Below are positions 10,928 through 57,418 of a stretch of DNA of 64,000 bases, piece after piece. The first letter of the stretch is position 1. The number at the start of each line of letters is the position of its first letter. The notes below the pieces were generated by a model. That model saw only the letters and a program-made list of their open reading frames with translations, did no database searches and was not told the origin of the DNA. Made by a program: the position numbers and the translations under genes. The stretch spans positions 371 through 64,370 of the forward strand of contig JABFRW010000052.1 in assembly GCA_013140805.1 (NCBI GenBank), read 5' to 3'. The stretch is from Candidatus Eiseniibacteriota bacterium. Its GTDB lineage: Bacteria > Eisenbacteria > RBG-16-71-46.

Positions 10928-11905
10928 GTGAGCCGGGTGCCTGGCGAGCCGCTCGCCACCGCCGCAGCAGCAGCCGCCACGCGCCGCGCCGGAAACGGCC
11001 GCTGGCTGGTCGCGGGGGCCGCAACGTTGTGGGGAACAACCGCGACGCTCGCTCGCTTCGTCTTTCATGATCGAAGCGTTTCGCCGTTCGTGGTTGTCGA
11101 GTTGCGCCTCGCGATCGCGGTCGCGGTACTCGGACTCTGGCTCGCGATTCGAGACCCGAGTGCGTTTCGAGTGTCAGCGAGCGCACTGCTCGAACTGGTC
11201 GTTCTCGGTGCCGTCGGTGTCACGCTGGTCCAGGTCAGCTACTACTACTCGATCGCGCATCTGGGCGTGGGACTGGCGATCCTGCTGCAGTATCTGGCGC
11301 CTTCGTTGATCGTGGCGCTCCACCTGATCCGCCGCCAGCCGACTCGCCGTGAGACTGCGCTCGCCGTGTTGATGGCGGCGAGTGGAACTGCGCTGCTCGT
11401 GAGTCGCGTCCCTCGAGAGGCGGCGGATGCCACTCCGCTGCAATGGGCGGTGAGTTTTGCGTCGGCAGCCTTTTTTGCGGGCTACATCCTGCTCTCGAAA
11501 CGGATACTCAAGACGCATCGACCCGAGACGACGCTGTTCTACTCGTTCTCGACCGCGGCGGTCGTCCTTGCGATCGTCGCGCCACCGTGGCGAATCGCCG
11601 CCGCCGGGTACGGCGCCGATCTGTGGCTGATGTTCGTGGCTCTCGGCCTACTCTCGACCCTCGCGCCGTTCGTACTCTTCAATTTCGGGCTCCAGCGCAT
11701 GCCGGCCGCCGAAGCGGGCATCGTTGCGACACTCGAGCCGGTCGTCGCGGTCATCTCGGCGTGGGTATTTCTGGGCGAACGCCTCGAATCACTGCAGTGG
11801 GCAGGCGCGGCACTCGTTCTCTCAGCAGCCGTCCTGGCGTCCGGTGCTGAAACGCCGACCGCAAAACGAATCCCCGCCACGCCGAGGCAGAGCAAGTTGT
11901 CGTGA
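10928..11905 (+). CDS. EamA/DMT-family transporter (10 TM)
   Basis: Two EamA-like hydrophobic repeats; 325 aa. Confidence 0.85.
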   Translation: MSRVPGEPLATAAAAAATRRAGNGRWLVAGAATLWGTTATLARFVFHDRSVSPFVVVELRLAIAVAVLGLWLAIRDPSAFRVSASALLELVVLGAVGVTLVQVSYYYSIAHLGVGLAILLQYLAPSLIVALHLIRRQPTRRETALAVLMAASGTALLVSRVPREAADATPLQWAVSFASAAFFAGYILLSKRILKTHRPETTLFYSFSTAAVVLAIVAPPWRIAAAGYGADLWLMFVALGLLSTLAPFVLFNFGLQRMPAAEAGIVATLEPVVAVISAWVFLGERLESLQWAGAALVLSAAVLASGAETPTAKRIPATPRQSKLS

Positions 11906-11936
11906 GTTTCGGCATGGCGGGGTGAATCCTCGGTGC

Positions 11937-12413
11937 CTAGCTGGCCCGAGCCAGGTTCGACTCGTCGCTGACGCGATGATGCGAACGGTGCACGGTGTGC
12001 AGTCGCGACTGCACTCGCTCGAGCCTCGATGCGCTCACGGTCTCGACCGCGTAGCGTTCGTCCCACACCAGATTCCCGCCCAGCCACACACGCAACTCGG
12101 GGTGTCGCTCGAGCAGCACCACACTGGTGCGACCCTTGAGCTCTCGAATCGCGCTCGCGATGCTCTGCGCCGGACGCAGGCCCATGAGCACGTGAACGTG
12201 ATCGAGTCCGACCGCGAGATCGACGACTTCGAATCCCCGCTCCTCGCACAGCGTGCGAATCAAGGACTCGAGCGTCACCGCATGGCGGTCCTTCATGACC
12301 GGTCGCCGACCGCGCGTGCTCCAGGTGACGAGATAGTGGAGTCGACTCCGGTACACGGGCTCCCATCGGCCAAGCAGAGCGTTCTGAACTGAGGGAGCGA
12401 TGACATTGCTCAT
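11937..12413 (-). CDS. IS200/IS605-family Y1 (HUH) transposase TnpA homolog, solo, without detectable IS ends
   Basis: HUH motif 'LDHVHVLMGL'; C-terminal catalytic-Tyr context 'WDERYAVETV'; 158 aa. Only ~66 bp of flanking non-coding DNA in total. Confidence 0.85.
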   Translation of the reverse strand: MSNVIAPSVQNALLGRWEPVYRSRLHYLVTWSTRGRRPVMKDRHAVTLESLIRTLCEERGFEVVDLAVGLDHVHVLMGLRPAQSIASAIRELKGRTSVVLLERHPELRVWLGGNLVWDERYAVETVSASRLERVQSRLHTVHRSHHRVSDESNLARAS

Positions 12414-12434
12414 GATGCCGCCTCCTGCGGGGTG

Positions 12435-12450
12435 CTGAACGGATGTGCAG
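12435..12450. promoter_or_regulatory. LexA-box-like palindrome CTGAAC-GGAT-GTGCAG between SD and upstream terminator of the tnpA homolog
   Basis: Matches TGNNC-N4-GTGCA; one half-site mismatch relative to the lexA operator at 13170-13185. Confidence 0.5.
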
Positions 12451-12459
12451 TTAATGGGT

Positions 12460-12490
12460 CCGAAAAACGGGAGCTTTCGCTCCCGTTCGG
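12460..12490 (-). terminator. Intrinsic terminator of lexA (stem ccgaacgggagc/gctcccgtt + U-tract on minus strand)
   Basis: Hairpin 20 bp downstream of the lexA stop; minus-strand transcript ends in gcucccguuuuucgg. Confidence 0.7.
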
Positions 12491-12509
12491 GGTGCCGGTG
12501 CCGAGCGAC

Positions 12510-13124
12510 TCAGCGACCGACGGTTCGCATGACACCTTTCACGATTCCGAGCACACGAAACTCCTGATCGCTTCCAACCAGGATCGGCTTGTACTTCTCG
12601 TTCGCCGGTTCGAGTTCGAGGTGGGTTCCGCGAGGGCGGTAGTACTTCACCGTCGCCTCATCGCCGATCAACGCGACGATCATGTCACCCGACGAAGCAC
12701 GATCCTGACTGCGAACGATCACGAAGTCTCCTTCGAGGATCCCCGCGTCGATCATGCTGTCACCGCGAACCTTCAGCGCGAACAGTCCCTGCGTATCGCC
12801 GAACAGCTCGCCGGGCTTGAGCGATTCGTCGAACGAAGTCTCGGCGAGAATCGGTTCGCCTGCCGCGACGCGCCCGAGAATCGGAATGCCGCCGAGTTGC
12901 GGTAGTGGTCCGTCGTCATGCAGGAGCAGATCGATCCCGCGCGAAATCTTCGCGTTGCGGCGGATGAAGCCTTCCCGCTCGAGCGACGTCAGATGATGTC
13001 GGACGCCATTGGTCGACATGATCTCGAATGCTTCGCCGATCTCGCGAATGGTCGGCGGGTAGCCTCGCTCGCGAGCGAAGGTCCGGATGTAGTCGAGAAT
13101 CTCTCTCGCCCGCTCACTGAGCAT
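12510..13124 (-). CDS. lexA: LexA repressor (SOS response)
   Basis: Winged-helix N-terminus 'TIREIGEAFEIMSTNGVRHHLTSLEREGFI'; C-terminal S24 peptidase Ser/Lys dyad region; 204 aa. Confidence 0.95.
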   Translation of the reverse strand: MLSERAREILDYIRTFARERGYPPTIREIGEAFEIMSTNGVRHHLTSLEREGFIRRNAKISRGIDLLLHDDGPLPQLGGIPILGRVAAGEPILAETSFDESLKPGELFGDTQGLFALKVRGDSMIDAGILEGDFVIVRSQDRASSGDMIVALIGDEATVKYYRPRGTHLELEPANEKYKPILVGSDQEFRVLGIVKGVMRTVGR

Positions 13125-13169
13125 GGCTTCTTCTCCTTCGGGGTGGGTCCGTCAGGGCCCTAGCACGTG

Positions 13170-13185
13170 CGGGACCGTACTGCAC
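13170..13185. promoter_or_regulatory. Putative LexA operator CTGCAC-ACGC-GTGCAG (Fibrobacteres-type TGCNC-N4-GTGCA box), 46-61 nt upstream of the lexA start
   Basis: Perfect inverted half-sites CTGCAC/GTGCAG in the lexA promoter; autoregulation is expected. Confidence 0.7.
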
Positions 13186-13539
13186 ACGCGTGCAGCCGTC
13201 AAGAGAAAGAGTTCGGCTGGCGAGCGAAGCCCGTCGGACGGCCCCGATTCGTCACGCTCGTCGCCGCCTCGACGCCGAGGGCGTCACGCGCGACCACTGG
13301 GGCGCCGGTCGAGTCGAGCAGGTCTCATGGAATCCGGCGCAATTGCGTTCCTCCTGCGCGTGAAGTCAGCGCCCGATGAATGGCCCTCGACTTGCCCTAT
13401 GACTTGAACGAGGTCGCAAGGCCTCGAACCACGACAGGCAAGGGGCGGGCGGCACGAAGCTCCGAGGTCGATCGCAATCGGGGGCCGGTCACTGAGGAGT
13501 CGGACCACCGCTGCCTTGTCGGTCGGGGGAAGCGCACGC

Positions 13540-38573: not shown

Positions 38574-38589
38574 TGCTCACTTGTGCAGG
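38574..38589. promoter_or_regulatory. LexA-box-like palindrome CTGCTC-ACTT-GTGCAG, 53-68 nt upstream of the SPL-like radical SAM gene
   Basis: Exact match to TGCNC-N4-GTGCA. Confidence 0.55.
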
Positions 38590-38641
38590 CGCGACGGAGC
38601 CGCGATAATGGCGGCCGGTGCCGGGCCAGGAGGGCAGAAGC

Positions 38642-39538
38642 ATGCAGATCGAGTATCGAGAAGAGCCGTGCCGCAGTGCGCTCAATCGAGTCGTCGGCAT
38701 GGGATTCGAGTGGTCGCTCAATCCCTACATGGGCTGCGCGCATCGATGCGCGTTCTGCTATGTGCGGCAGTTCGAGCGCCGCGCCGAGCGACCGAGCGGC
38801 GAGACCTACGGGCTCTCGATTCGCGTCAAGACCAACATCGCGCAGGTGCTCCGAACTGAACTCGCGCGACCCTCATGGAAACGCGAGCAGGTGGCGATCG
38901 GAGCCGCGACCGATCCCTACCAACCGATCGAGGGACAGTATCGGCTCACCCGTGCGTGCCTGATCGAGCTGTCGCGTGCACGGACTCCATTCGGGATCAT
39001 CACGCGCGGACCGCTGATCGTGCGAGATCTCGACGTGCTCACCGAGGCGGCGAAGCGCGTGAAGGTGGGCGTCAGCATCTCGATTCCTACGCTCGACGAG
39101 GCGGTGTGCCGCACGCTGGAACCCGGCGCACCACCGCCGCGTGCGAGGCTCGAAGCCGTGCGGCGACTGGTCGACGCGGGCATTCGCGCCGGCATCGGAA
39201 TGGCGCCGATTCTTCCGGGCCTATCGGACGCGCCGGAGCAACTCGCGGCCGTCGTGCGCGCCGCGCGCGAAGTGGGCGCGGTCTCGCTGTGGGCCGGCGT
39301 CGTGTACCTGAAAGACGCACCACGCGAGCACTTTCTCGACGCGCTCCGGCGCGAGTGGCCGGAGCAGCTGGCGTACTACGAGAAACTGTTCGCGAGTCGC
39401 TCGTATCTACCCAGGCGGCTCACCGCACCGATCGTCGAGAAGGTGCGAGAGCTCAAGCTGCTGCACGACATCGCAGACCGGCGCACCCTGCGGCTGGAGC
39501 CAGCACCCGAGCCGGGGCAGTTGCTGCTGGGGGTGTGA
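38642..39538 (+). CDS. Radical-SAM DNA-repair enzyme of the spore-photoproduct-lyase-like (SplB / 'DNA repair photolyase', COG1533) family
   Basis: 'CAHRCAFCY' CxxxCxxC motif; AGGAGG-N7-ATG start. Confidence 0.8.
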   Translation: MQIEYREEPCRSALNRVVGMGFEWSLNPYMGCAHRCAFCYVRQFERRAERPSGETYGLSIRVKTNIAQVLRTELARPSWKREQVAIGAATDPYQPIEGQYRLTRACLIELSRARTPFGIITRGPLIVRDLDVLTEAAKRVKVGVSISIPTLDEAVCRTLEPGAPPPRARLEAVRRLVDAGIRAGIGMAPILPGLSDAPEQLAAVVRAAREVGAVSLWAGVVYLKDAPREHFLDALRREWPEQLAYYEKLFASRSYLPRRLTAPIVEKVRELKLLHDIADRRTLRLEPAPEPGQLLLGV

Positions 39539-47703: not shown

Positions 47704-47882
47704 AGTCCCAGGGTAGGAATCGTGCATTCCAGCCAGGCCGAACGGGGATTCGAGGGCGTGCGCGAAGAATCTCGAGTGCGCGCTTGGGGACTCGCGCATC
47801 TGCGTCCTACCATGTTCGACCCTTGCACCCCGCCGTCCGAGCGCCGCGCACACCACATCGAGAGTTCAGGGAGGTATTCCCG

Positions 47883-50800
47883 TTGTTCCGTCGCCTGAGG
47901 ATCCAGGCCGGTTTCGCGGTGCTGCTCGCGGCGATCGCCGTGTCGGCGACCGCCTCGCAGGTCGGCGCGTCGATCACGCTGCCGTACCCGTTCTGGTACT
48001 TCAACGCGGCGCCCGGAACCACGTTCGACACTCCGACCGGCATCGCGTTCATGCCCGACGGCCGGCTGCTGGTGTCCGAGAAGCGCGGCCGCGTCTACGT
48101 GATCAAAGATGGCACCCGGCTCACGACTCCGCTGTGGCAGCGCGAGAACGAGGTGCTGAACAACGGCGACAAGGGATTGCTCGACGTCGCGGTGGATCCC
48201 GACTTCGCGATCAACCGCTACGTCTACCTGCTCTACACGGTGGACCCCGACACCAACGGCGTCGACGACAACGAGGACGCGTTCGGGCGTCTGACGCGCT
48301 ACCAGGTCAGCGCCACCGATCCGAATGTCGTCGACTACGACACCCGCACCGTGCTGATGGGTCGCGTGTGGAACGAGGGCCCGACGATCGGATCGATCAC
48401 GCACTCGATCGGATCGTTGCGGTGGGGCACCGACAAGACGCTGCTGATCTCGATGGGCGACGGCGCGCAGTTCACCGTGATGGACCCGGGTGGGCTCGAC
48501 CCGGCGATGTTCGGCCCCGGCAAGGCGAATCCCTACGAAGACATCGGCGCGTTTCGCGCACAGGACATCACGGTGCTGCCGGGCAAGGTGTTGCGAATCG
48601 ATCCCGCGACCGGGCACGGCATGCCGAGCAATCCGTTCTACGACGGCAACCCGAGCTCGAACCGCTCCAAGGTGTGGGCCTACGGAGTGCGCAATCCGTT
48701 TCGCATCTGCGTGCGTCCCGGCAGCGGCAGCAGCAATCCCGCCGACGGTGACCCCGGTAGCGTGTACGTCGGCGACGTGGGCTGGGAGACCTGGGAAGAG
48801 GTGAGTGTGATCAAGACCGGCGGCACCAACCTGGGCTGGCCGTGCTTCGAGGGCACCCACAACAATTCGCCCTATCAGTCGGCCTCTCCGGCGCACAACG
48901 GCTGCGGCAGCGTGGGCAGCGCCACCAATCCCTCACCCTTCACCGCGCCGTTCACCGACTGGCATCACGCCAACGCATCGCTCAGTTCGCCGTCGGGAGT
49001 GAAAGGCAATTCAGCGATCGGCGGCACGTTCTACACCGGCGTGTCGTGGCCGCTCGCCTTTCGCGGGCGCCTGATCGTCGGCGACTACGGCTACGGCTTC
49101 ATGCGGGTCGCCACCGTCGACGCGAACGATGACGTGACGGCGTGGACCTCGTTCGCGGCCGAAACCGACGGCCCGGTCGACATGGCGACCGGCCCCTACG
49201 ACGGCGATCTCTACTACGTCTCGATCACCACCGGCGAAGTGCGCCGCATCCACTACTTCCGCCCGCTGGGCGGCAACCAGGCGCCCAACGCGGTGGCGGG
49301 CGCCGACCTGCTGCTGGGCACCGCACCGCTGACCGTGCAGTTCTCGAGTGCCGCCAGCAGTGATCCCGACGGCGATTCGCTGCGCACCACGTGGACGTTC
49401 GACGACGGCTCCGGCTCATTCCTCGCGAACCCGACGCACTCTTTCCAGTACGCGGGGACCTATCAGGTGCAACTGCTGGTCGACGACGATCGGTTGAACG
49501 AAGGCACCCACACCGTGACGATCGTGGTGAATCCGTCTCAGCCGTTCCCGGCCACCGGCACGCTCGATGACTTCAACCGCGCCAACGGGCCACTCGGGGC
49601 TTCGTGGAGTGACCCGGTCCATGGCGCTGCGGCGGCCGCGGTGAACGGCAACGACCTGGTGCAGAGCGGCGTCACGCCCACCGAACCGGTGTGGGACCCG
49701 CAGGTCTTCGGCACCGAGCAGGAAGCGTACGTGCGCTTCGACGCCACGACCTCGAACTCGCCCGAGCAGGCGCTGCTTCTCAAGCTGCAGGGGGCGCGCT
49801 CCGATTCGTCGCACATCCGCGTGGTCTACGACGCGCGCTTCCCGCACGTGCAGGTCGCGACTTTCCAGCCCGGCATCGGCGAGGTGGTGCGAGGGGCGGC
49901 GATTCCGATCGAGTTCGTGGTCGGCGACACGCTCGGCGCCCGCGCGTTCGGTAACGGCACCGTGCAGGTGTTCCACAACGGCGCGCTGATCGGCACCGTA
50001 AGCGTGGGCTCGTGGCCCTATGCCGCGAGCGGCGGCCGCATCGGACTGGCGCTTACCGGCGCGCTGCTCACGCGCCTCGACGACTTCGGCGGCGGCAACT
50101 TCGCAGGTGGAGCGAACACCGCGCCGCTCGCGGTCATCGACGCGCCGATCGACAGCGCGTTCTTCGCCGCGCAGGATTCGATCCACATGAGCGGCAGCGG
50201 TGTCGATGCGCAACAGCCGGCCGAGGCGCTGCAATACTTCTGGGATGTCTACCTGCATCACAACACGCACGTGCATCCGAACACCTTCACGAGCTCCAAT
50301 CGCAACGCCGCGATGGTCGCCGAAGATCACGAAGACGGCACCGGCGTGTGGTACGAGGTGCGCCTCTACGTGCAGGACGCCGAAGGGCTGCGCGATACCG
50401 CACGCGTCGATCTGTTCCCCGAGATCAACCTGCGCGCGAGTGAACTCGCGGTCACGCCGGATCCGCCGACCGAGGGTCAGTGGGCGACCTGGAGCTTCAA
50501 GCTCCGCAACCTGGGCCGCATGCCGGCGCCGATCTCGCGCTGGCGTCTGGTACTCGGCAACACACTGCTGGCCGAAGGCGACACTTTGATCGCGCCCGGC
50601 GACAGCGTGCTGATCTCGGCCACGCTCATCAACCCGTTGGGTGGCGGCAGCTTCACTGCCCGGGCGACCGGTGACACCCTGGCCAACGTGGTCGAGACCG
50701 ACGAATCCGACAACGCCTCGATTCGGCAGGTCGAAATGGCCGGATCGCCGGTCGGAGTGGGGCAGGCGCCACAGCGTTTCGCGCTTTCACAGGGATTTCC

Positions 50801-51050
50801 CAACCCCGCCGGCGCCATGGTGCGATTCGGTCTCGATCTGCCCCGACGTGGTGCGGTAGCATTTCGGGTCCTCGACGTTCAGGGTCGCGAGGTGTGGACG
50901 CAAGGCGCGCGGGAATTCGCGGCCGGGCACTGGAATCTCGAGTGGCCGTCACGGTTGGCGGACGGTTCGCGAGCTCCGGCAGGTCTCTACCTCGCGTTGA
51001 TTGCCGTCGAGGGCCGCACGTACGCTCGACGGATTGCGGTCGTGCGATGA
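47883..51050 (+). CDS. Giant secreted multidomain protein, paralog 2: signal peptide, GSDH-like beta-propeller, PKD domain, LDDF-bracketed jelly-roll-like domain, His-cluster domain, CARDB-like domain, T9SS C-terminal domain
   Basis: AGGGAGG-N7-TTG start; 'GLLDVAVDPDF', PKD 'TVQFSSAASSDPDGD', 'YLHHNTHVHPNTF', C-terminus 'FPNPAGAMVRF...GLYLALIAVEGRTYARRIAVVR'. Confidence 0.85.
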   Translation: MFRRLRIQAGFAVLLAAIAVSATASQVGASITLPYPFWYFNAAPGTTFDTPTGIAFMPDGRLLVSEKRGRVYVIKDGTRLTTPLWQRENEVLNNGDKGLLDVAVDPDFAINRYVYLLYTVDPDTNGVDDNEDAFGRLTRYQVSATDPNVVDYDTRTVLMGRVWNEGPTIGSITHSIGSLRWGTDKTLLISMGDGAQFTVMDPGGLDPAMFGPGKANPYEDIGAFRAQDITVLPGKVLRIDPATGHGMPSNPFYDGNPSSNRSKVWAYGVRNPFRICVRPGSGSSNPADGDPGSVYVGDVGWETWEEVSVIKTGGTNLGWPCFEGTHNNSPYQSASPAHNGCGSVGSATNPSPFTAPFTDWHHANASLSSPSGVKGNSAIGGTFYTGVSWPLAFRGRLIVGDYGYGFMRVATVDANDDVTAWTSFAAETDGPVDMATGPYDGDLYYVSITTGEVRRIHYFRPLGGNQAPNAVAGADLLLGTAPLTVQFSSAASSDPDGDSLRTTWTFDDGSGSFLANPTHSFQYAGTYQVQLLVDDDRLNEGTHTVTIVVNPSQPFPATGTLDDFNRANGPLGASWSDPVHGAAAAAVNGNDLVQSGVTPTEPVWDPQVFGTEQEAYVRFDATTSNSPEQALLLKLQGARSDSSHIRVVYDARFPHVQVATFQPGIGEVVRGAAIPIEFVVGDTLGARAFGNGTVQVFHNGALIGTVSVGSWPYAASGGRIGLALTGALLTRLDDFGGGNFAGGANTAPLAVIDAPIDSAFFAAQDSIHMSGSGVDAQQPAEALQYFWDVYLHHNTHVHPNTFTSSNRNAAMVAEDHEDGTGVWYEVRLYVQDAEGLRDTARVDLFPEINLRASELAVTPDPPTEGQWATWSFKLRNLGRMPAPISRWRLVLGNTLLAEGDTLIAPGDSVLISATLINPLGGGSFTARATGDTLANVVETDESDNASIRQVEMAGSPVGVGQAPQRFALSQGFPNPAGAMVRFGLDLPRRGAVAFRVLDVQGREVWTQGAREFAAGHWNLEWPSRLADGSRAPAGLYLALIAVEGRTYARRIAVVR

Positions 51051-51081
51051 CTTCCCGCTTACGCATCGGAGACCTACCGGT

Positions 51082-54000
51082 ATGCTCCCCCGGCTACCCG
51101 GCCTCGCCTTCGTCGTCGCCTGCTTGCTGCTCGTCGCCGTCGCGCTGGCTCCGCGACCCGCTGACGCCATCACCTTCACCGACTCCCTGTTCATCGCCGA
51201 GGATATCGCCCCGGCAGTGACGTGGACCACGCCGACCGGACTGGCGTACCTGCCCGGCGGTCGGCTGCTGGTGATCGAGAAGCGCGGCCGCGTGTATTCC
51301 GTGATGAACGGCATCAAGAGCGCTCAGCCGCTGCTCAATCTCGAGTCCGAGGTGTTGAACGAGGGCGACCGTGGACTGCTCGGAATCGCGGTCGATCCCA
51401 ACTACGTCACGAACCACTTCGTGTACCTGCTCTACACCGTGGATCCCGACTCGAACGACATTGAGACCAACGACGACGCATTCAGCCGCCTGTCGAGATT
51501 CCAGGTCAGCTTCGCGGACTCGACCTCGATGCCCTACGCGAGTCGCGCGGTGCTGTTCGGGCACACCTGGACGAGCGGCGCGATCTCCGCGTCGTCTTCG
51601 CACACTGTCGGCTGCCTGCGCTTCGGTACCGACGGCACGCTGCTGGTCTCGATCGGCGACGGCGGACAGTTCAACGTCACCGATGCCGGTGGCGTCGACC
51701 CCGGGGCGTTCGGCGCCGGCAGGACCGATCCGCTCGAGGACATCGGCGCGTTTCGCGCGCAGTACCTGCAGAGTCTCGCGGGCAAGCTGTTGCGGATCGA
51801 TCCCGCAACCGGCCTCGGACTGCCGAGCAATCCGTTCTACGAGTCGGCGAACCCCGGCTCGGCGCAATCGCGTGTGTGGTGCTACGGCCTGCGCAATCCG
51901 TTCCGATTCGCGCTGCACCCCGCCACCGGCAGCACCGACCCGAGCGCCGGTCAGCCCGGCAGCGCGTTCATCGGCGACGTCGGCTGGACGGCGTGGGAGG
52001 AAACCAACGTCGCGACCACCGGGGGGGTCAACTTCGGCTGGCCGTGCTACGAAGGTTTGAATCCGCAGGACGGCTATCAGGCCGCCACACCGCCACATCA
52101 CGATTGCGCGACCATCGGAACGGTCACGAATCCATCGCCGGCGACGAGCCCCATCATGACCTGGCATCACCTCACGGCGAGTCTCAGCACGCCTCCGGGC
52201 CTGGTCGGAAACGCCGCGACCGCGTGCGTGTTCTACACCGGCGGGCGCTACCCGATCATCTACGCCGGGCGGTTCTTCTTCAGCGACTACGGCGCCGACT
52301 GGATCAACACCGCGGTGCTCGACGGCAACCAGGTACTGGTGAGCACTTCGCCGTGGGCGACCTCGGTCGGCGGCCCGGTCGACCTCGCGCAGGACCCCGT
52401 GAACGGCGAACTGATCGTCGTCAGCATCACGAACAACCAGGTGCTGCGGATTCGCTACGCCGGCACCGTGCCGAACGGCGAGCCGGTCACGGTCGCGAAG
52501 GGCACGCCGCTGGTGGGCATCATGCCGCTGACCGTGAGCTTCTCGAGCGCCGGCACCTTCGATCCGAACGGCGACCCGGTCACGATGACGTGGCTGTTCG
52601 GTGACGGCGAGGGGGCGAGCGGTCCGGCGCCTCAGCACACCTACACCAAGTCGGGAAGCTTCCTGGCGGTGCTCAATGCCGCCGACGATGACGGCAGCAT
52701 CGGCCGCGATACCGTGAACGTGGTGGTGCTCGCTTCTTCGGCGTTCCCGACCACCCCGGTGCTCGACAACTTCAATCGCGCGAACGGACCGATCGGAAGC
52801 CCGTGGGTCGGAATCACGAGCGGGCTCACCATCAACAACAACATGCTGTGGCCGAGCTGCTGTTCACCGAGCACGGTGTGGAGCAGTCAGAGCTTCGGCC
52901 CCAACCAGGAAGCGTTCATTCGATTCCAGGCGATCAGCACCAGCGCGCCCGAACAGGACCTGATGCTCAAGGTGCAGGGGCTCTCGTACACCACCGGGCA
53001 CATCGAAGTGCGCTACGACGCAGCGCTTCACGCGGTTCGCGTGGCAACCTACGTGCTGCCGGGCGGGTGGACGCAACGCGCCTCGTTCCCCACCACCATG
53101 GCGGTCGGTGACGTGATGGGGGCGCGCGCATTCGCGAATGGTGTGATCCAGGTGATCAAAAACGGCGCGGTGCTCGGCCAGACCAGCACCGGCAACTGGC
53201 CGTTTGCCGCCAACGGTGGCTATCTGGGATTGACGATCGCCGGAGCGCAGGCCGCGCGTCTCGACGACTTCGGCGGCGGAAACGTGGTGTTCAGCACCAA
53301 CACGCCGCCGGCCGTCTCGATCGTCTCGCCGCTGCCCGGCGAGTTCTACGTCGAAGGTGAACCGCTGACGCTCAACGGCATCGCCACCGACGGTCAACAG
53401 GAGCCGGGCTCGCTGCCTTACGAGTGGTCGGTCAATCTGCACCACAACAATCACGTGCACCCGAACACCGTGGTCCTGTCGGGACCGACCACCGGATTCA
53501 CGCCCGAGAATCACGACGACGGCACCGGGGTGTGGCTGCAGCTCAAGCTGAGTGTGACCGATGCGGAAGGGCTCTCCGACACGACCAGCATCGCGATCTT
53601 CCCGGAGATCGACCTGGTGGCAGCGCCCGCACTGATCTCGCCCGATCCGCCGGTGACCGGCACCCAGACGTTCGTGAACTTCTGGATCCACAACCGTGGA
53701 CACATGCCGGCGCAGCTCTCGCGCTGGCGGCTGAATCGCGGCAACGAAGTACTGGCGGAAGGCGACACGCTGGTGCCGCCGCTCGATTCGGTGCGTGTGC
53801 AGCGCATCTACCCGGCCGGCAGCTTCGCCGCCGGCCCGCTCACGCTGCGATTCGTCGCCGACACGCTCGGCGTGATTCCCGAGACCGACGAATCCAACAA
53901 TGGGGTGACGATCGAACGCGTGGTGACGGAAGGCGGCGCGGTGGACGTCGAAGCAGCGCCTCTGGCATTCAGCCTCGGTGAGGTGCGCCCCAATCCCAGC

Positions 54001-54240
54001 CCGTCGACGGTCGCGCTGTCGCTCGCGCTGCCGCGCGTGTCGCGCGTCGAGTTCGAAGTGTTCGACGCGCAGGGTCGCGTCGCGCTGCGACGCGCCACGC
54101 GCGCCTACTCGCCGGGGCGGCACGAGTTGCGCTGGGACGGCCGGCTCAATGGCCGCGAAGCCGCGCCCGCCGGGCTCTACTGGGCCCGCGTGACGGTCGA
54201 CGGAGCTCGATATGCGCGGCGCTTCGTGATCGTGAAGTAG
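51082..54240 (+). CDS. Paralog 3, same architecture (~88% nt identity to paralog 4 over the aligned 5' segment (51241-51420 vs 54421-54600))
   Basis: 'GLLGIAVDPNYV', 'NLHHNNHVHPNTV', C-terminus '...GLYWARVTVDGARYARRFVIVK'. Confidence 0.9.
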   Translation: MLPRLPGLAFVVACLLLVAVALAPRPADAITFTDSLFIAEDIAPAVTWTTPTGLAYLPGGRLLVIEKRGRVYSVMNGIKSAQPLLNLESEVLNEGDRGLLGIAVDPNYVTNHFVYLLYTVDPDSNDIETNDDAFSRLSRFQVSFADSTSMPYASRAVLFGHTWTSGAISASSSHTVGCLRFGTDGTLLVSIGDGGQFNVTDAGGVDPGAFGAGRTDPLEDIGAFRAQYLQSLAGKLLRIDPATGLGLPSNPFYESANPGSAQSRVWCYGLRNPFRFALHPATGSTDPSAGQPGSAFIGDVGWTAWEETNVATTGGVNFGWPCYEGLNPQDGYQAATPPHHDCATIGTVTNPSPATSPIMTWHHLTASLSTPPGLVGNAATACVFYTGGRYPIIYAGRFFFSDYGADWINTAVLDGNQVLVSTSPWATSVGGPVDLAQDPVNGELIVVSITNNQVLRIRYAGTVPNGEPVTVAKGTPLVGIMPLTVSFSSAGTFDPNGDPVTMTWLFGDGEGASGPAPQHTYTKSGSFLAVLNAADDDGSIGRDTVNVVVLASSAFPTTPVLDNFNRANGPIGSPWVGITSGLTINNNMLWPSCCSPSTVWSSQSFGPNQEAFIRFQAISTSAPEQDLMLKVQGLSYTTGHIEVRYDAALHAVRVATYVLPGGWTQRASFPTTMAVGDVMGARAFANGVIQVIKNGAVLGQTSTGNWPFAANGGYLGLTIAGAQAARLDDFGGGNVVFSTNTPPAVSIVSPLPGEFYVEGEPLTLNGIATDGQQEPGSLPYEWSVNLHHNNHVHPNTVVLSGPTTGFTPENHDDGTGVWLQLKLSVTDAEGLSDTTSIAIFPEIDLVAAPALISPDPPVTGTQTFVNFWIHNRGHMPAQLSRWRLNRGNEVLAEGDTLVPPLDSVRVQRIYPAGSFAAGPLTLRFVADTLGVIPETDESNNGVTIERVVTEGGAVDVEAAPLAFSLGEVRPNPSPSTVALSLALPRVSRVEFEVFDAQGRVALRRATRAYSPGRHELRWDGRLNGREAAPAGLYWARVTVDGARYARRFVIVK

Positions 54241-54262
54241 CCGGATGCATCGGAGGGTCGGC

Positions 54263-57200
54263 ATGCTCTCGAGACGCGCCGGCCGCTTGTTCGCGGCTGC
54301 TCTGATCGTCACTGCAATTGGGATCGCACCCCGACCCGCACGCGCGATCGCCTTCAGCGATCCGTTGTTCGTTGCCGAGGACGTGGCCCCCGGAGCGAGC
54401 TGGAGCACGCCGACCGGACTGGCCTACCTGCCCGGCGGCCGGCTGCTGGTGATCGAGAAGCGCGGTCGCGTGTACTCGGTGATGAACGGAATCAAGAGCG
54501 CGCAGCCGCTGCTCAATCTCGAACTCGAGGTACTGAACGAAGGCGATCGCGGCCTGCTCGGAATCGCCGTCGACCCGAACTACGTCTCGAACCACTCGGT
54601 GTATCTGCTCTACACGGTGGACCCCGATTCGAACAACGTCGAGACCAACGATGATGCGTTCAGCCGGCTGTCGCGATTCCAGATCGGCTTCGCGGACTCG
54701 ACCGTGATCGCCTACTCGTCGCGTGCGGTTCTGTTCGGCTCCACCTGGACGAACGGAGCGGTCTCGGCGGCGTCTTCGCACACCATCGGTTGTCTGCGCT
54801 TTGGAAGCGACGGAACCCTGCTCGTGTCGGTCGGCGATGGGGGTCAGTTCAGCGGCGCCGATGCGGGCGGACTGGACCCCGGTGCGTTCGGCGCCGGCAG
54901 GACCGATCCGCTCGAAGACATCGGAGCGTTTCGCGCGCAGTACCTGCAGAGCCTCGCTGGAAAGCTGCTGCGGCTCGATCCGGCGACCGGTCGGGGACTG
55001 CCGAGCAATCCGTTCTATCAAGCCGGCAGTCCGAGCTCTGCCCAGTCTCGCGTGTGGGCCTACGGACTTCGGAACCCGTTCCGCTTCGCGATGCGACCCG
55101 GCACCGGCAGCTCGAATCCTGGCGTGGGTCAGCCGGGCGTGGCGTTCATCGACGACGCGGGCTGGTTCACGTGGGAGGAAACCAACGTCGCGGTGACCGG
55201 AGGACTCAACTTCGGTTGGCCTTGTTACGAAGGGTTCAACCCGCAGAATGCGTATCAGGGTGCCGTGCCGTCGCACCACGGCTGCGCGACCATCGGCACT
55301 CCCGCGAATCCCTCGCCGCGAGCGAACCCGCTGATCGCGTGGCATCACGGCGACTCGCTGCTCAGCACGCCGGCGGGTCTGATCGGCAATGCGGCGACGG
55401 CGTGTCTTTTCTACACCGGGAGTCGCTACCCGACCGGCTTCGCCGGCCGGTTCTTCTTTAGCGACTACGGGCGCAATTGGATCGACACCGCCGTGATGGA
55501 CGCCAGTCACGCGCTCGTGAGCACCGCGCCGTGGGCCACTTCCGCGGATGGCCCGGTCGACATGGCGCAGGATCCCGCGAGCGGCGAGATCGTGCTCGTG
55601 ACACTCGCGAACAACAAGGTGCTGCGCGTTCGATACACCGGAGCGGGATCGAACGGTGCTCCGTTGGCATTCGCAGCCGGCACGCCGCGCGTCGGGGTGG
55701 CGCCCTGCCTGGTGAACTTCTCGAGCGCGGGCACGTTCGATCCGAATGGTGATCCACTCACGCTCAACTGGCTGTTCGGCGACGGTACCGGCGCGAGTGG
55801 TCCAGCGCCCTCGCACTCGTACACGGTGGCGGGCAGCTATCAGGCGACCCTCACCGCGCGCGACAATCACGGCGACATCGGTCGCGATACTGTGACCATC
55901 GTGGTGCTGGGCTCGTCGGTTTTTCCGACCACCGCGGTGCTCGACAACTTCAACCGCGCGAACGGCCCGCTCGGCGGCGCGTGGGTCGACAATGCGAACG
56001 GGCTCGCGATCAATGGCAACCAGCTCACGCAGACGTGCTGCACTCCGAGCACGGTGTGGAGCGGGCAGAGCTTCGGGCCCAACCAGGAGGCCTACGTCCG
56101 CTTCCTGGCCGTCACGCCGGGCGCCGACGAACAGGACCTGATGCTCAAGGTTCAGGGGCTCTCGTACAGCACCGGCCACATCGAGGTGCGCTACGACGCG
56201 GTGCTCGCGGCGGTGCGTGTGTCGACCTATCTGCCCTCGACGAGCTGGACGCAATGGGCAGCGTTTCCGACCACGATGGCGGTCGGCGACGTGCTGGGTG
56301 CCCGCGCGTTCTCGAACGGCATGATTCAGGTGATGAAGAATGGCGCTTTGCTGGGCGAGACCACGAGCGGTGAGTGGCCGTTCGCCGCCAACGGAGGCTA
56401 CCTGGGGCTGACGTTTGCGGGTGCGCTGACGTCGCGACTCGATGACTTCGGCGGAGGCACCATCGTGCTCAATCCGAACACCGCACCGAACGCCACCGTC
56501 ACCTCACCGCCCTCCGGCCAGTTCTATGTGGAGGGGATTCCGATTGCGCTGACCGGAACCGCCACCGATGCGCAGCAGAGCTCGGCGTCCCTTCAGTACG
56601 ACTGGTCGGTCGACCTGCATCACAACAACCACGTTCATCCGAGCACCGTGGTGTTGTCGGGCGCTTCGACCGGCTTCACGCCCGAGAACCACGACGACGG
56701 CACGGGTGTGTGGCTCGAGGTCAAGCTGCTGGCGATGGACTCGGGCGGGCTCGCTGACACCGCCGGCATCGCGCTCTATCCTGAAATCGACCTCCAGGCA
56801 AAGGCCGGCTTGATCTCGCCGGATCCACCCACCACCGGGACGCAGACGTTCGTGAACTTCTGGATCCACAATCGTGGCCGCATGCCGGCGCAACGGTCGC
56901 GCTGGCGACTCAACCGCGGCGCGCAGATGCTCGCCGAGGGCGACACGCTGGTGGCACGACTCGACTCGGTTCGCGTTCAGCGCGTGTTCCCGGCCGGCAC
57001 GTTCGTGGCGGGTCCACTCACGCTGCGATTCCGGGCGGACACGCTCGGCACCGTGCCCGAGACCAACGAGGCGAACAACGGAGTGACGGTTCAACGCACC
57101 GTGATCCAGGGCGGTGCGGTCGCCGTCGAGCCGCCACCGATCGCATTCGGTCTCGGCGAGTCGCGCCCGAATCCGAGTGCCTCGAGCGTTGCATTCTCGC

Positions 57201-57418
57201 TGGACCTGCCGCGGGCGGCGAGCGTGACGTTCGAAGTATTCGACGCCCAGGGCCGTGTCGCCTTTCGGAGCCTCGGACGGACACTCGCACCCGGGCGCCA
57301 CACGCTGGACTGGAGCGGACGCGTCGAAGGTCGTGAGCCGGCAGCGCCGGGGCTCTACTGGGCACGCGTGACGGTCGACGGCGTCCGCTACGCCCGTCGC
57401 TTCGTGATCGTCAGGTAG
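54263..57418 (+). CDS. Paralog 4, same architecture
   Basis: GGAGGG-N5-ATG start; 'DLHHNNHVHPSTV'; C-terminus '...RRFVIVR'. Confidence 0.9.
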   Translation: MLSRRAGRLFAAALIVTAIGIAPRPARAIAFSDPLFVAEDVAPGASWSTPTGLAYLPGGRLLVIEKRGRVYSVMNGIKSAQPLLNLELEVLNEGDRGLLGIAVDPNYVSNHSVYLLYTVDPDSNNVETNDDAFSRLSRFQIGFADSTVIAYSSRAVLFGSTWTNGAVSAASSHTIGCLRFGSDGTLLVSVGDGGQFSGADAGGLDPGAFGAGRTDPLEDIGAFRAQYLQSLAGKLLRLDPATGRGLPSNPFYQAGSPSSAQSRVWAYGLRNPFRFAMRPGTGSSNPGVGQPGVAFIDDAGWFTWEETNVAVTGGLNFGWPCYEGFNPQNAYQGAVPSHHGCATIGTPANPSPRANPLIAWHHGDSLLSTPAGLIGNAATACLFYTGSRYPTGFAGRFFFSDYGRNWIDTAVMDASHALVSTAPWATSADGPVDMAQDPASGEIVLVTLANNKVLRVRYTGAGSNGAPLAFAAGTPRVGVAPCLVNFSSAGTFDPNGDPLTLNWLFGDGTGASGPAPSHSYTVAGSYQATLTARDNHGDIGRDTVTIVVLGSSVFPTTAVLDNFNRANGPLGGAWVDNANGLAINGNQLTQTCCTPSTVWSGQSFGPNQEAYVRFLAVTPGADEQDLMLKVQGLSYSTGHIEVRYDAVLAAVRVSTYLPSTSWTQWAAFPTTMAVGDVLGARAFSNGMIQVMKNGALLGETTSGEWPFAANGGYLGLTFAGALTSRLDDFGGGTIVLNPNTAPNATVTSPPSGQFYVEGIPIALTGTATDAQQSSASLQYDWSVDLHHNNHVHPSTVVLSGASTGFTPENHDDGTGVWLEVKLLAMDSGGLADTAGIALYPEIDLQAKAGLISPDPPTTGTQTFVNFWIHNRGRMPAQRSRWRLNRGAQMLAEGDTLVARLDSVRVQRVFPAGTFVAGPLTLRFRADTLGTVPETNEANNGVTVQRTVIQGGAVAVEPPPIAFGLGESRPNPSASSVAFSLDLPRAASVTFEVFDAQGRVAFRSLGRTLAPGRHTLDWSGRVEGREPAAPGLYWARVTVDGVRYARRFVIVR

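Follow-up and report, generated by a model that had tools for sequence, protein, structure and literature searches.

This report concerns a 477-bp gene located in a 64,000-nt stretch of contig JABFRW010000052.1 of a Candidatus Eiseniibacteriota bacterium; the whole stretch is hereafter called the window. The gene resembles tnpA, the transposase gene of the IS200/IS605 insertion sequences (IS), and lies next to lexA. Here we argue that it very probably encodes a domesticated, non-mobile IS200-type HUH protein that has lost the catalytic tyrosine and is preceded by an operator of the LexA type, and that this protein probably acts in the DNA-damage response. A sequence-only reading of the locus had taken the gene to be host-retained and linked to the SOS response rather than part of an active IS; this proposal is now strongly supported by conserved synteny, a conserved operator, selection similar to that on lexA and co-divergence with LexA.

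Inheritance together with lexA

A scan that covered one genome per species (GTDB representatives) and returned carriers only yielded 78 loci, almost all of them labeled Candidatus Eisenbacteria, with a few other labels that come from third-party bins. In 78 of 78 loci, lexA is located immediately upstream of the tnpA-like gene on the same strand, mostly 83–180 bp away (96 bp in the window, where the adjacency and shared strand had been noticed from the outset); thus, the lexA-tnpA synteny that the sequence-only reading proposed to check is conserved throughout the sample. Downstream, an EamA gene is often found in convergent orientation in the 78 sampled loci. The sequence-only reading had also suggested looking for further copies and for repeats: no second tnpA-like copy and no repetitive extragenic palindromic (REP)-like repeats are present in the 64-kb window, and the family scan returned a single locus for each of two complete chromosomes (L050 and L062). 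Within the limits of the data, no identical, hairpin-ended copies elsewhere and no relatives lacking the gene at this locus have come to light.

The tnpA-like protein and LexA appear to have diverged in parallel. Mean pairwise identity is 64% for the tnpA-like protein and 66% for LexA, and the pairwise identities of the two proteins are correlated (Pearson r = 0.80, 2850 pairs). The ratio of nonsynonymous to synonymous substitution rates (dN/dS), another check proposed at the outset, is 0.02–0.2 in the closest genome pairs, indistinguishable from that of lexA; the values for distant pairs (median 0.32) were set aside, given the saturation and bias of synonymous sites in this G+C-rich lineage, so that only the closest pairs were used. 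No relatives with more than 40% identity were found on plasmids or phages. Taken together, the synteny with lexA, the co-divergence, the purifying selection and the lack of plasmid or phage relatives exclude that the gene is a recent insertion, part of an active IS or a decaying pseudogene.

One metagenome-assembled genome, MFD05942.bin.1.32, has two loci, L029 and L072. In L072, the tnpA-like gene and both LexA-type boxes are present, the upstream LexA-like match is just 33% identical to the LexA of the window, and the frame at the start of this match closes after 165 nt. The two loci could be paralogues, or the pair could stem from faulty assembly or from contamination of the bin.

The operators also link the gene to the SOS response. 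The LexA-box-like site that the sequence-only reading had spotted ahead of the tnpA-like gene recurs across the sampled loci: the exact motif TGCAC-N4-GT[GT]CA occurs in 75 of the 79 intergenic regions between lexA and the tnpA-like open reading frame (ORF), at a median distance of 24 nt from the ORF start, as well as in 77 of the 78 promoters of lexA, where it lies a median of 57 nt ahead of the start, and no further exact site was detected in 598 kb of flanking DNA. In the window, the lexA promoter holds a perfect palindrome, CTGCACACGCGTGCAG (13180–13195), and the LexA translation displays a canonical Ala-Gly cleavage site (VAAGEP) along with the Ser (GDSM) and the Lys (TVKYY). Accordingly, TGCAC-N4-GTGCA is a well-supported prediction for the LexA operator of the phylum, and, with an operator that matches the LexA box of the organism, we infer that the tnpA-like gene is a member of the LexA (SOS) regulon.

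The operators of the two genes form two classes. At lexA, the pattern is TGCAC-GC-N-T-GTGCA followed by (C/G)TA (13195–13197 in the window; the T in 73 and the A in 75 of 77 sequences), whereas the tnpA-like gene has TGCAC-AT-N-Y-GTTCA, in which the spacer A-T and the T of the GTTCA half-site are consistent across the sampled loci. These class-specific differences may reflect promoter overlap or graded affinity for LexA. The 17-mer CTGCACATCCGTTCAGC, which comprises the operator of the tnpA-like gene and its flanks, appears compatible with the LexA box of Fibrobacter, TGCNC-N4-GTGCA. It also conforms to CTRHAMRYBYGTTCAGS, the consensus of the delta-proteobacterial SOS box (quoted in bioRxiv 10.1101/2020.12.14.422803).

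The nucleophile position and the protein family

The identification of the gene as a tnpA homolog has held up: the 158-aa ORF matches Pfam Y1_Tnp (PF01797; E = 1.3e-22) and the NCBIfam IS200/IS605 transposase model NF033573 (78.5 bits, with a cutoff of 55). The NCBIfam RAYT model NF047646 yields 38.7, under its cutoff of 80, and this score, along with the lack of REP-like repeats in the window, speaks against the earlier suggestion that the protein is RAYT-like. The AlphaFold2 model shows the TnpA fold, with a mean predicted local distance difference test score of 78.9, and its best Foldseek matches are the ISDra2, Sulfolobus and IS608 TnpAs (E = 1e-9 to 1e-7), the match to the E. coli RAYT structure (4er8) being weaker (E = 6.8e-5). 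The HUH motif is present just as it had been read, in the form H72-V73-H74.

The same reading had also credited the protein with an intact catalytic tyrosine, and this part of it does not stand. In a pairwise alignment of residues 21–142 with the solved ISDra2 TnpA (2xm3), the nucleophile segment QKYIESQH of ISDra2 TnpA pairs with QSRLHTVH, such that the nucleophile, Y132, aligns with Arg137, and the metal-ligand Gln four residues further on aligns with Val141. Hence the Gln ligand is lost, the respective position in the orthologues being a variable Val, Leu or Thr. There is no Tyr beyond residue 121, which leaves the C-terminal helix Tyr-free. The residue that had been taken for the catalytic one is Y121 (WDERYAVE), the structural aromatic residue of canonical TnpAs (W-x-x-x-Y/F ahead of the last strand); of 103 relatives, 96 have Y or F at this position, and the majority of them possess the true catalytic Tyr as well. 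A different tyrosine nucleophile was considered and rejected: Y27 and Y121 occupy structural positions common to canonical TnpAs, and Y21 is found in only 68 of 79 orthologues. The AlphaFold2 monomer has a single long C-terminal helix with low confidence past residue 145, and, as judged from a monomer, Arg137 could reach the HUH site either in cis or in trans.

The arginine is a stable feature of the family. A search of 5.8 billion proteins retrieved hundreds of homologs of 152–159 aa, with 61–74% identity and mostly on single contigs; Arg137 is invariant in 20 of 20 homologs, as are D71/H72/H74, H142 and the terminal Ala-Ser. Residue counts and ORF integrity were taken from a set of 79 genomic orthologues, in which Arg137, His142 and His72 are each found in 77 sequences and His74 in all 79; all 79 ORFs are intact (152–170 aa), with approximately 30 invariant positions. 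Compared with the wider superfamily, the newly conserved features are Arg137, His142 (five residues past the Arg), an N-terminal extension with W17-E18-P19, and a C-terminal tail, A-x-A-S, which is nearly invariant across the 79 orthologues and follows a variable, gapped linker. Given that the tyrosine nucleophile has been replaced by a near-invariant Arg (77/79), the covalent chemistry of Y1 transposases is excluded; judged from its sequence, the protein cannot transpose by known chemistry, and the notion of a single-strand DNA transposase or nuclease that works with an intact Tyr falls with it.

The family is also tight and isolated: when 1.84 billion cluster representatives were searched exhaustively with a profile, just nine matches fell below 1e-30. 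Among 103 full-length representatives of the wider superfamily, 82 have the Tyr and 72 have Gln at +4, and the other non-Tyr representatives have truncated or scrambled C-termini or are lone Phe/Trp variants. Within these 103, Arg-Leu at the nucleophile site is confined to the present family and a divergent sister, P0125 (157 aa; locus L079, on a 1215-bp Logan contig, SRR29093010), which has a degenerate HUH motif, R-I-H; the P0125 gene, too, is located behind the 3' end of lexA, and a TGCCCGGATGTTCA site lies between the two. P0137, the closest relative with the Tyr among those examined, is not adjacent to lexA, and this single case fits a joint origin of the Arg substitution and the lexA linkage. 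According to a 2018 survey of the superfamily, the HuH and Y motifs are common to all sequences and classes (PMC6006769); therefore, a Tyr-less class is outside that published classification. Among the distant relatives, there are many proteins of 270–300 aa with two tandem Y1_Tnp domains (P0136, P0140–P0142, P0147 and similar ones), and in some of these, e.g., P0140, the HUH or Tyr motif of one domain is degenerate.

Architecture of the locus

The features of the locus are collected in Table 1.

Table 1. Features of the lexA-tnpA-like locus, in window coordinates
Feature	Position	Strand	Basis or remark
Coding sequence, IS200/IS605-type HUH protein without catalytic Tyr	11937..12413	-	477 bp, 158 aa
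HUH site, H72/H74, within the coding sequence	12192-12200	-	D71-H72-V73-H74 intact
Arg137, at the nucleophile position	12003-12005	-	Alignment with ISDra2 TnpA, and orthologues
His142, near-invariant	11988-11990	-	Orthologue alignment
Operator of the tnpA-like gene, TGCACATCCGTTCA	12436..12449	-	Motif conserved in orthologous intergenic regions
CCCCGCAGGAGG element containing the Shine-Dalgarno sequence AGGAGG	12421..12432	-	7 nt ahead of ATG; conserved in most of 79 intergenic regions
Hairpin AACGGGAGC-gaaa-GCTCCCGTT and T-run, lexA intrinsic terminator	12463..12487	-	9-bp stem
lexA, 204 aa	12510..13124	-	TIGR00498, 199.7 bits
Palindromic operator of lexA itself, TGCACACGCGTGCA	13181..13194		Motif conserved in lexA promoters
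Hairpin between the EamA and tnpA-like genes	11872..11922		14-bp stem, 23-nt loop; overlaps the EamA stop
EamA-family transporter gene	10928..11905	+	Convergent; frequent, not universal neighbor

The public record of the same gene (P0001, 139 aa, 99% identical) begins at an internal GTG, Val20, and so lacks residues 1–19 (window 12357–12413); the public label of these genes is 'IS200/IS605 family transposase'. The 158-aa form is supported by the conservation of A6, P7 and W17-E18-P19 and of the upstream Shine-Dalgarno sequence. In most loci, the elements are arranged alike: first a hairpin that has CGGGAG/CTCCCG as its core and a distal stem and loop that vary, followed by TTTTTCA, approximately 11 nt, the operator, (T)CCCCGCAGGAGG, 6–8 nt, and then a GTG or ATG start.

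With respect to the surroundings of the gene, the sequence-only reading was right about the EamA stop codon, which ends 31 bp from the stop of the tnpA-like ORF, about the presence of a terminator after lexA, seen here as a hairpin and T-run, and about the missing tnpB partner, none being present in the window, and it erred about the distance of this terminator, which is approximately 49 bp, not 35 bp, from the start codon. Its statement that no hairpin ends fit around the gene holds in part. Hairpins do exist on both sides, a conserved one upstream and one with a 14-bp stem downstream; the two (CGGGAGC...GCTCCCG and CCCCGCCACGCCGA..., respectively) are unrelated in sequence, so that there are no matching IS ends.

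At the base of the lexA terminator hairpin, each pair is identical in 37–41 of 41 intergenic sequences, with few compensatory changes, and the CGGGAG/CTCCCG core is found a single time in the window and in each locus. On this alignment, the conservation of the hairpin exceeds what a plain terminator needs. It may stem from promoter overlap, from a vestigial IS200 left end or from a protein-binding site. The left end of IS200 contains a bidirectional terminator hairpin (nt 12–34), and transcription of its tnpA begins at about nt 40 (PMC4513863), so the lexA terminator hairpin may be a left-end vestige; under this hypothesis, an ancestral IS200 end would now serve as the terminator of lexA and overlap a new promoter. 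A role of the hairpin core as a dispersed target of the REP type was rejected for the DNA in hand, with its single copy per locus and window. Downstream of the tnpA-like stop, strong but lineage-variable hairpins are found in most loci (e.g., L004, L008, L012, L016, L020, L030 and L073), with stems of 12–20 bp and unusually large loops of 10–25 nt; these, including the one in the window, are probably bidirectional terminators. One subgroup of loci has a common downstream stem, CCGGCCGCGGCG...CGCCGCGGCCGG.

A one-mismatch box, TGCTCACTTGTGCA, at 38574–38587 is the only other near-match in the window that is located just upstream of a gene start. It lies 31 bp upstream of a radical SAM gene (38618–39538, plus strand) of the Rv2578c/PA0069 family (NCBIfam NF038135, 270 bits, below the equivalog cutoff of 430). 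Members of this family are LexA-regulated in Mycobacterium and Pseudomonas, and the gene is probably a second member of the SOS regulon in the window, as judged by its box.

No REP-like or high-copy repeats and no recurrent hairpin families were found in the 64-kb window, where no 16-mer occurs more than three times. Some 16-mers of the AGAACGGATTGCTCGGCA type do occur three times; these are not hairpin repeats, and three tandem ORFs of approximately 1,060–1,090 aa at 47784–57418, possibly paralogues, are a possible source of them.

Possible functions and known systems

The scenario that we favor begins with a class 1 (Y-x3-Q) TnpA of the IS200/IS605 group, which would have been domesticated and fixed right behind lexA in the ancestor that the sampled Candidatus Eisenbacteria share, its gene being now a member of the LexA regulon. 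In undamaged cells, LexA bound to TGCACATCCGTTCA would block a promoter between the T-run of the terminator and the Shine-Dalgarno sequence; upon DNA damage, RecA-stimulated self-cleavage of LexA would derepress the tnpA-like gene. The protein, which like TnpA is presumably dimeric, would then bind structured single-stranded DNA (ssDNA), such as hairpins in gaps and forks or in the lagging-strand template, via the ancestral hairpin-recognition surface, and the pocket built of the metal, the two His residues (with, possibly, His142) and Arg137 would hold a phosphate, with no covalent 5'-phosphotyrosine link being formed. The outcome would be a damage-induced factor that binds or processes ssDNA structures, not a transposase. 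Non-covalent binding of structured ssDNA is offered as a tentative mechanism, to which we would assign somewhat less than an even chance. As for the A-x-A-S tail past the flexible linker, it might, speculatively, be a tag for partner binding or for recognition by a protease.

Several considerations weigh against this scenario. LexA binding, induction by damage, DNA binding and the lack of cleavage are all predictions, and the organism is known from metagenome-assembled genomes only. The scan found carriers only, and the figure of 78 out of 78 therefore does not give the share of carriers among Eisenbacteria species. A sigma-70 promoter scan of positions 11700–13400 returned no promoter-like site, and no repeat family that could be the DNA target of the tnpA-like protein was found in the window or the loci. 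Finally, the HUH histidines are strictly conserved, and this points to a role that the metal site has kept, which would suit a hydrolytic nuclease at least equally well.

Such a nuclease, induced in the course of the SOS response and acting on structured or single-stranded DNA, would employ the HUH metal and His142 to activate water and Arg137 to stabilize the transition state; its cleavage of hairpins or flaps in damaged DNA would involve no covalent intermediate. We rate this possibility as unlikely, if deserving of serious attention. The retention of the HUH histidines in 77–79 of 79 orthologues, together with Arg137 and His142, is hard to explain by passive binding, particularly as the degenerate motif of P0125 shows that the HUH site is free to drift, and SOS control would suit a repair nuclease. 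However, the third canonical metal ligand, the Gln, is lost, and we know of no HUH-fold enzyme that cleaves hydrolytically without the Tyr. Furthermore, Y-to-F mutants of TnpA serve as catalytically dead proteins, as in the ISDra2 Y132F structure (2xo6), and IS200 Y125F is listed as 'cat. dead' (PMC4513863). The more specific proposal of a hydrolytic, structure-specific ssDNA nuclease or hairpin processor that acts at damaged forks and is a core LexA-repressed SOS effector in the phylum is, in our estimate, distinctly unlikely. If true, hydrolysis would be a mode of catalysis new to the HUH superfamily, and the protein would represent a new class of transposase-derived SOS functions.

Alternatively, the protein might regulate the SOS circuit itself, either by binding the CGGGAG/CTCCCG hairpin, as ssDNA or RNA, or by modulating LexA or RecA, in the manner of the small modulators that are encoded beside lexA or recA in other bacteria. 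The adjacency to lexA is absolute (78/78), the hairpin core is conserved in sequence and not just in structure, with a single copy per locus, and the conserved C-terminal tail resembles a partner-binding or degradation tag. Still, overlap with the downstream promoter and terminator function can account for the hairpin, the co-divergence with LexA is expected from shared vertical descent alone, and a protein-protein interaction finds no support in the present data; such a regulator seems to us very unlikely.

Lower still we place a dominant-negative guard against IS200/IS605 elements, i.e., a dead TnpA that would occupy IS ends or form inactive heterodimers. The protein is a TnpA fold minus the nucleophile, and, since both subunits of the dimer contribute to a TnpA active site, a Tyr-less subunit would poison an active partner. 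Transposition of ISDra2 is triggered by irradiation, and induction of a guard would coincide with the abundance of ssDNA that favors transposition. The proposal is nonetheless highly improbable: no IS200/IS605 element or tnpB was found in the window or the examined flanks, identity to canonical TnpAs is just 28–38%, which makes heterodimers or common recognition of ends doubtful, and conservation in every sampled genome would demand a persistent matching IS.

A plain IS200 insertion on its own, or a RAYT accompanied by REPs, active or recently so and placed beside lexA by chance, would agree with the NCBIfam score above the IS200 cutoff, the public label and the hairpin on each side, yet it is extremely improbable, and refuted as far as the sequence data reach, by the missing catalytic Tyr, the same locus in 78 of 78 cases, a divergence equal to that of lexA, the unrelated flanking hairpins, the RAYT score below cutoff and the lack of REP-like repeats and of close plasmid or phage relatives. 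A functionless, decaying remnant, of which the loss of the catalytic Tyr and the Gln would be the expected product, has a negligible probability and is refuted by the conservation data, namely 79 intact ORFs out of 79, Arg kept in 77 of them, close-pair dN/dS of 0.02–0.2, and the conserved operator and Shine-Dalgarno sequence.

For domesticated Y1 transposases, the known precedent is the RAYTs; here, a whole clade has swapped the nucleophile for Arg and kept the metal site, a natural experiment on what a HUH active site is capable of without tyrosine. A literature search on HUH proteins, LexA, domestication and the SOS response retrieved no description of a domesticated lexA-linked HUH gene, no paper linking Eisenbacteria with LexA was found, and the literature searched contains no Tyr-less, lexA-linked HUH class. 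The domesticated, Tyr-less protein that we favor would be a new candidate for an SOS effector in a phylum without cultured members; it is small (158 aa) and should be easy to express. The public annotation can be corrected on two counts, the 'transposase' label and the N-terminal truncation at this locus.

Compared with the IS200/IS605 TnpAs (ISDra2, 2xm3; IS608, 2vju; IS200), the protein shares the fold, the matches to Pfam and NCBIfam models, the HUH motif, a K/R-rich motif in strand 1 (RGRRP versus KYRR) and the W-x-x-x-Y aromatic motif, and the terminator hairpin just upstream of the gene is reminiscent of the IS200 left end (PMC4513863). Unlike these transposases, it has Arg for Tyr and no Gln ligand, and hence no Y-x3-Q, and it adds a conserved N-terminal extension of 20 residues and the A-x-A-S tail; its gene, in turn, has neither paired ends nor tnpB, is single-copy, fixed and inherited with lexA, and bears a LexA-type operator. 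With the RAYT (TnpA_REP) proteins, it has in common domestication, a single copy, vertical inheritance and purifying selection (for the concept, see PMC5581495 and PMC6006769). However, RAYTs keep the Tyr (Y-x3-NP), and REP/REPIN repeats both flank them and serve as their targets, whereas the genomic partner of the present gene is lexA rather than REPs, the Tyr is absent and the RAYT model scores below its cutoff. A tie between a HUH-superfamily transposase gene and the SOS response via LexA is also described for ISCR elements in a recent article (J Bacteriol 2026, PMC13393415); ISCRs are mobile, IS91-like elements with active transposases, unlike the present protein, which is immobile, devoid of the nucleophile and fixed beside lexA in every genome sampled.

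The arrangement of the locus has counterparts among the genes that are repressed by LexA and adjacent to lexA in other bacteria, for example sulA, downstream of lexA in Pseudomonas, and yneA, divergent from lexA in Bacillus. In each case, a small SOS effector gene sits beside lexA with a LexA operator of its own, predicted in the case of the tnpA-like gene. Unlike SulA and YneA, which are cell-division inhibitors with unrelated folds, the protein described here would bring to this position a nucleic acid-binding HUH fold derived from a transposase.

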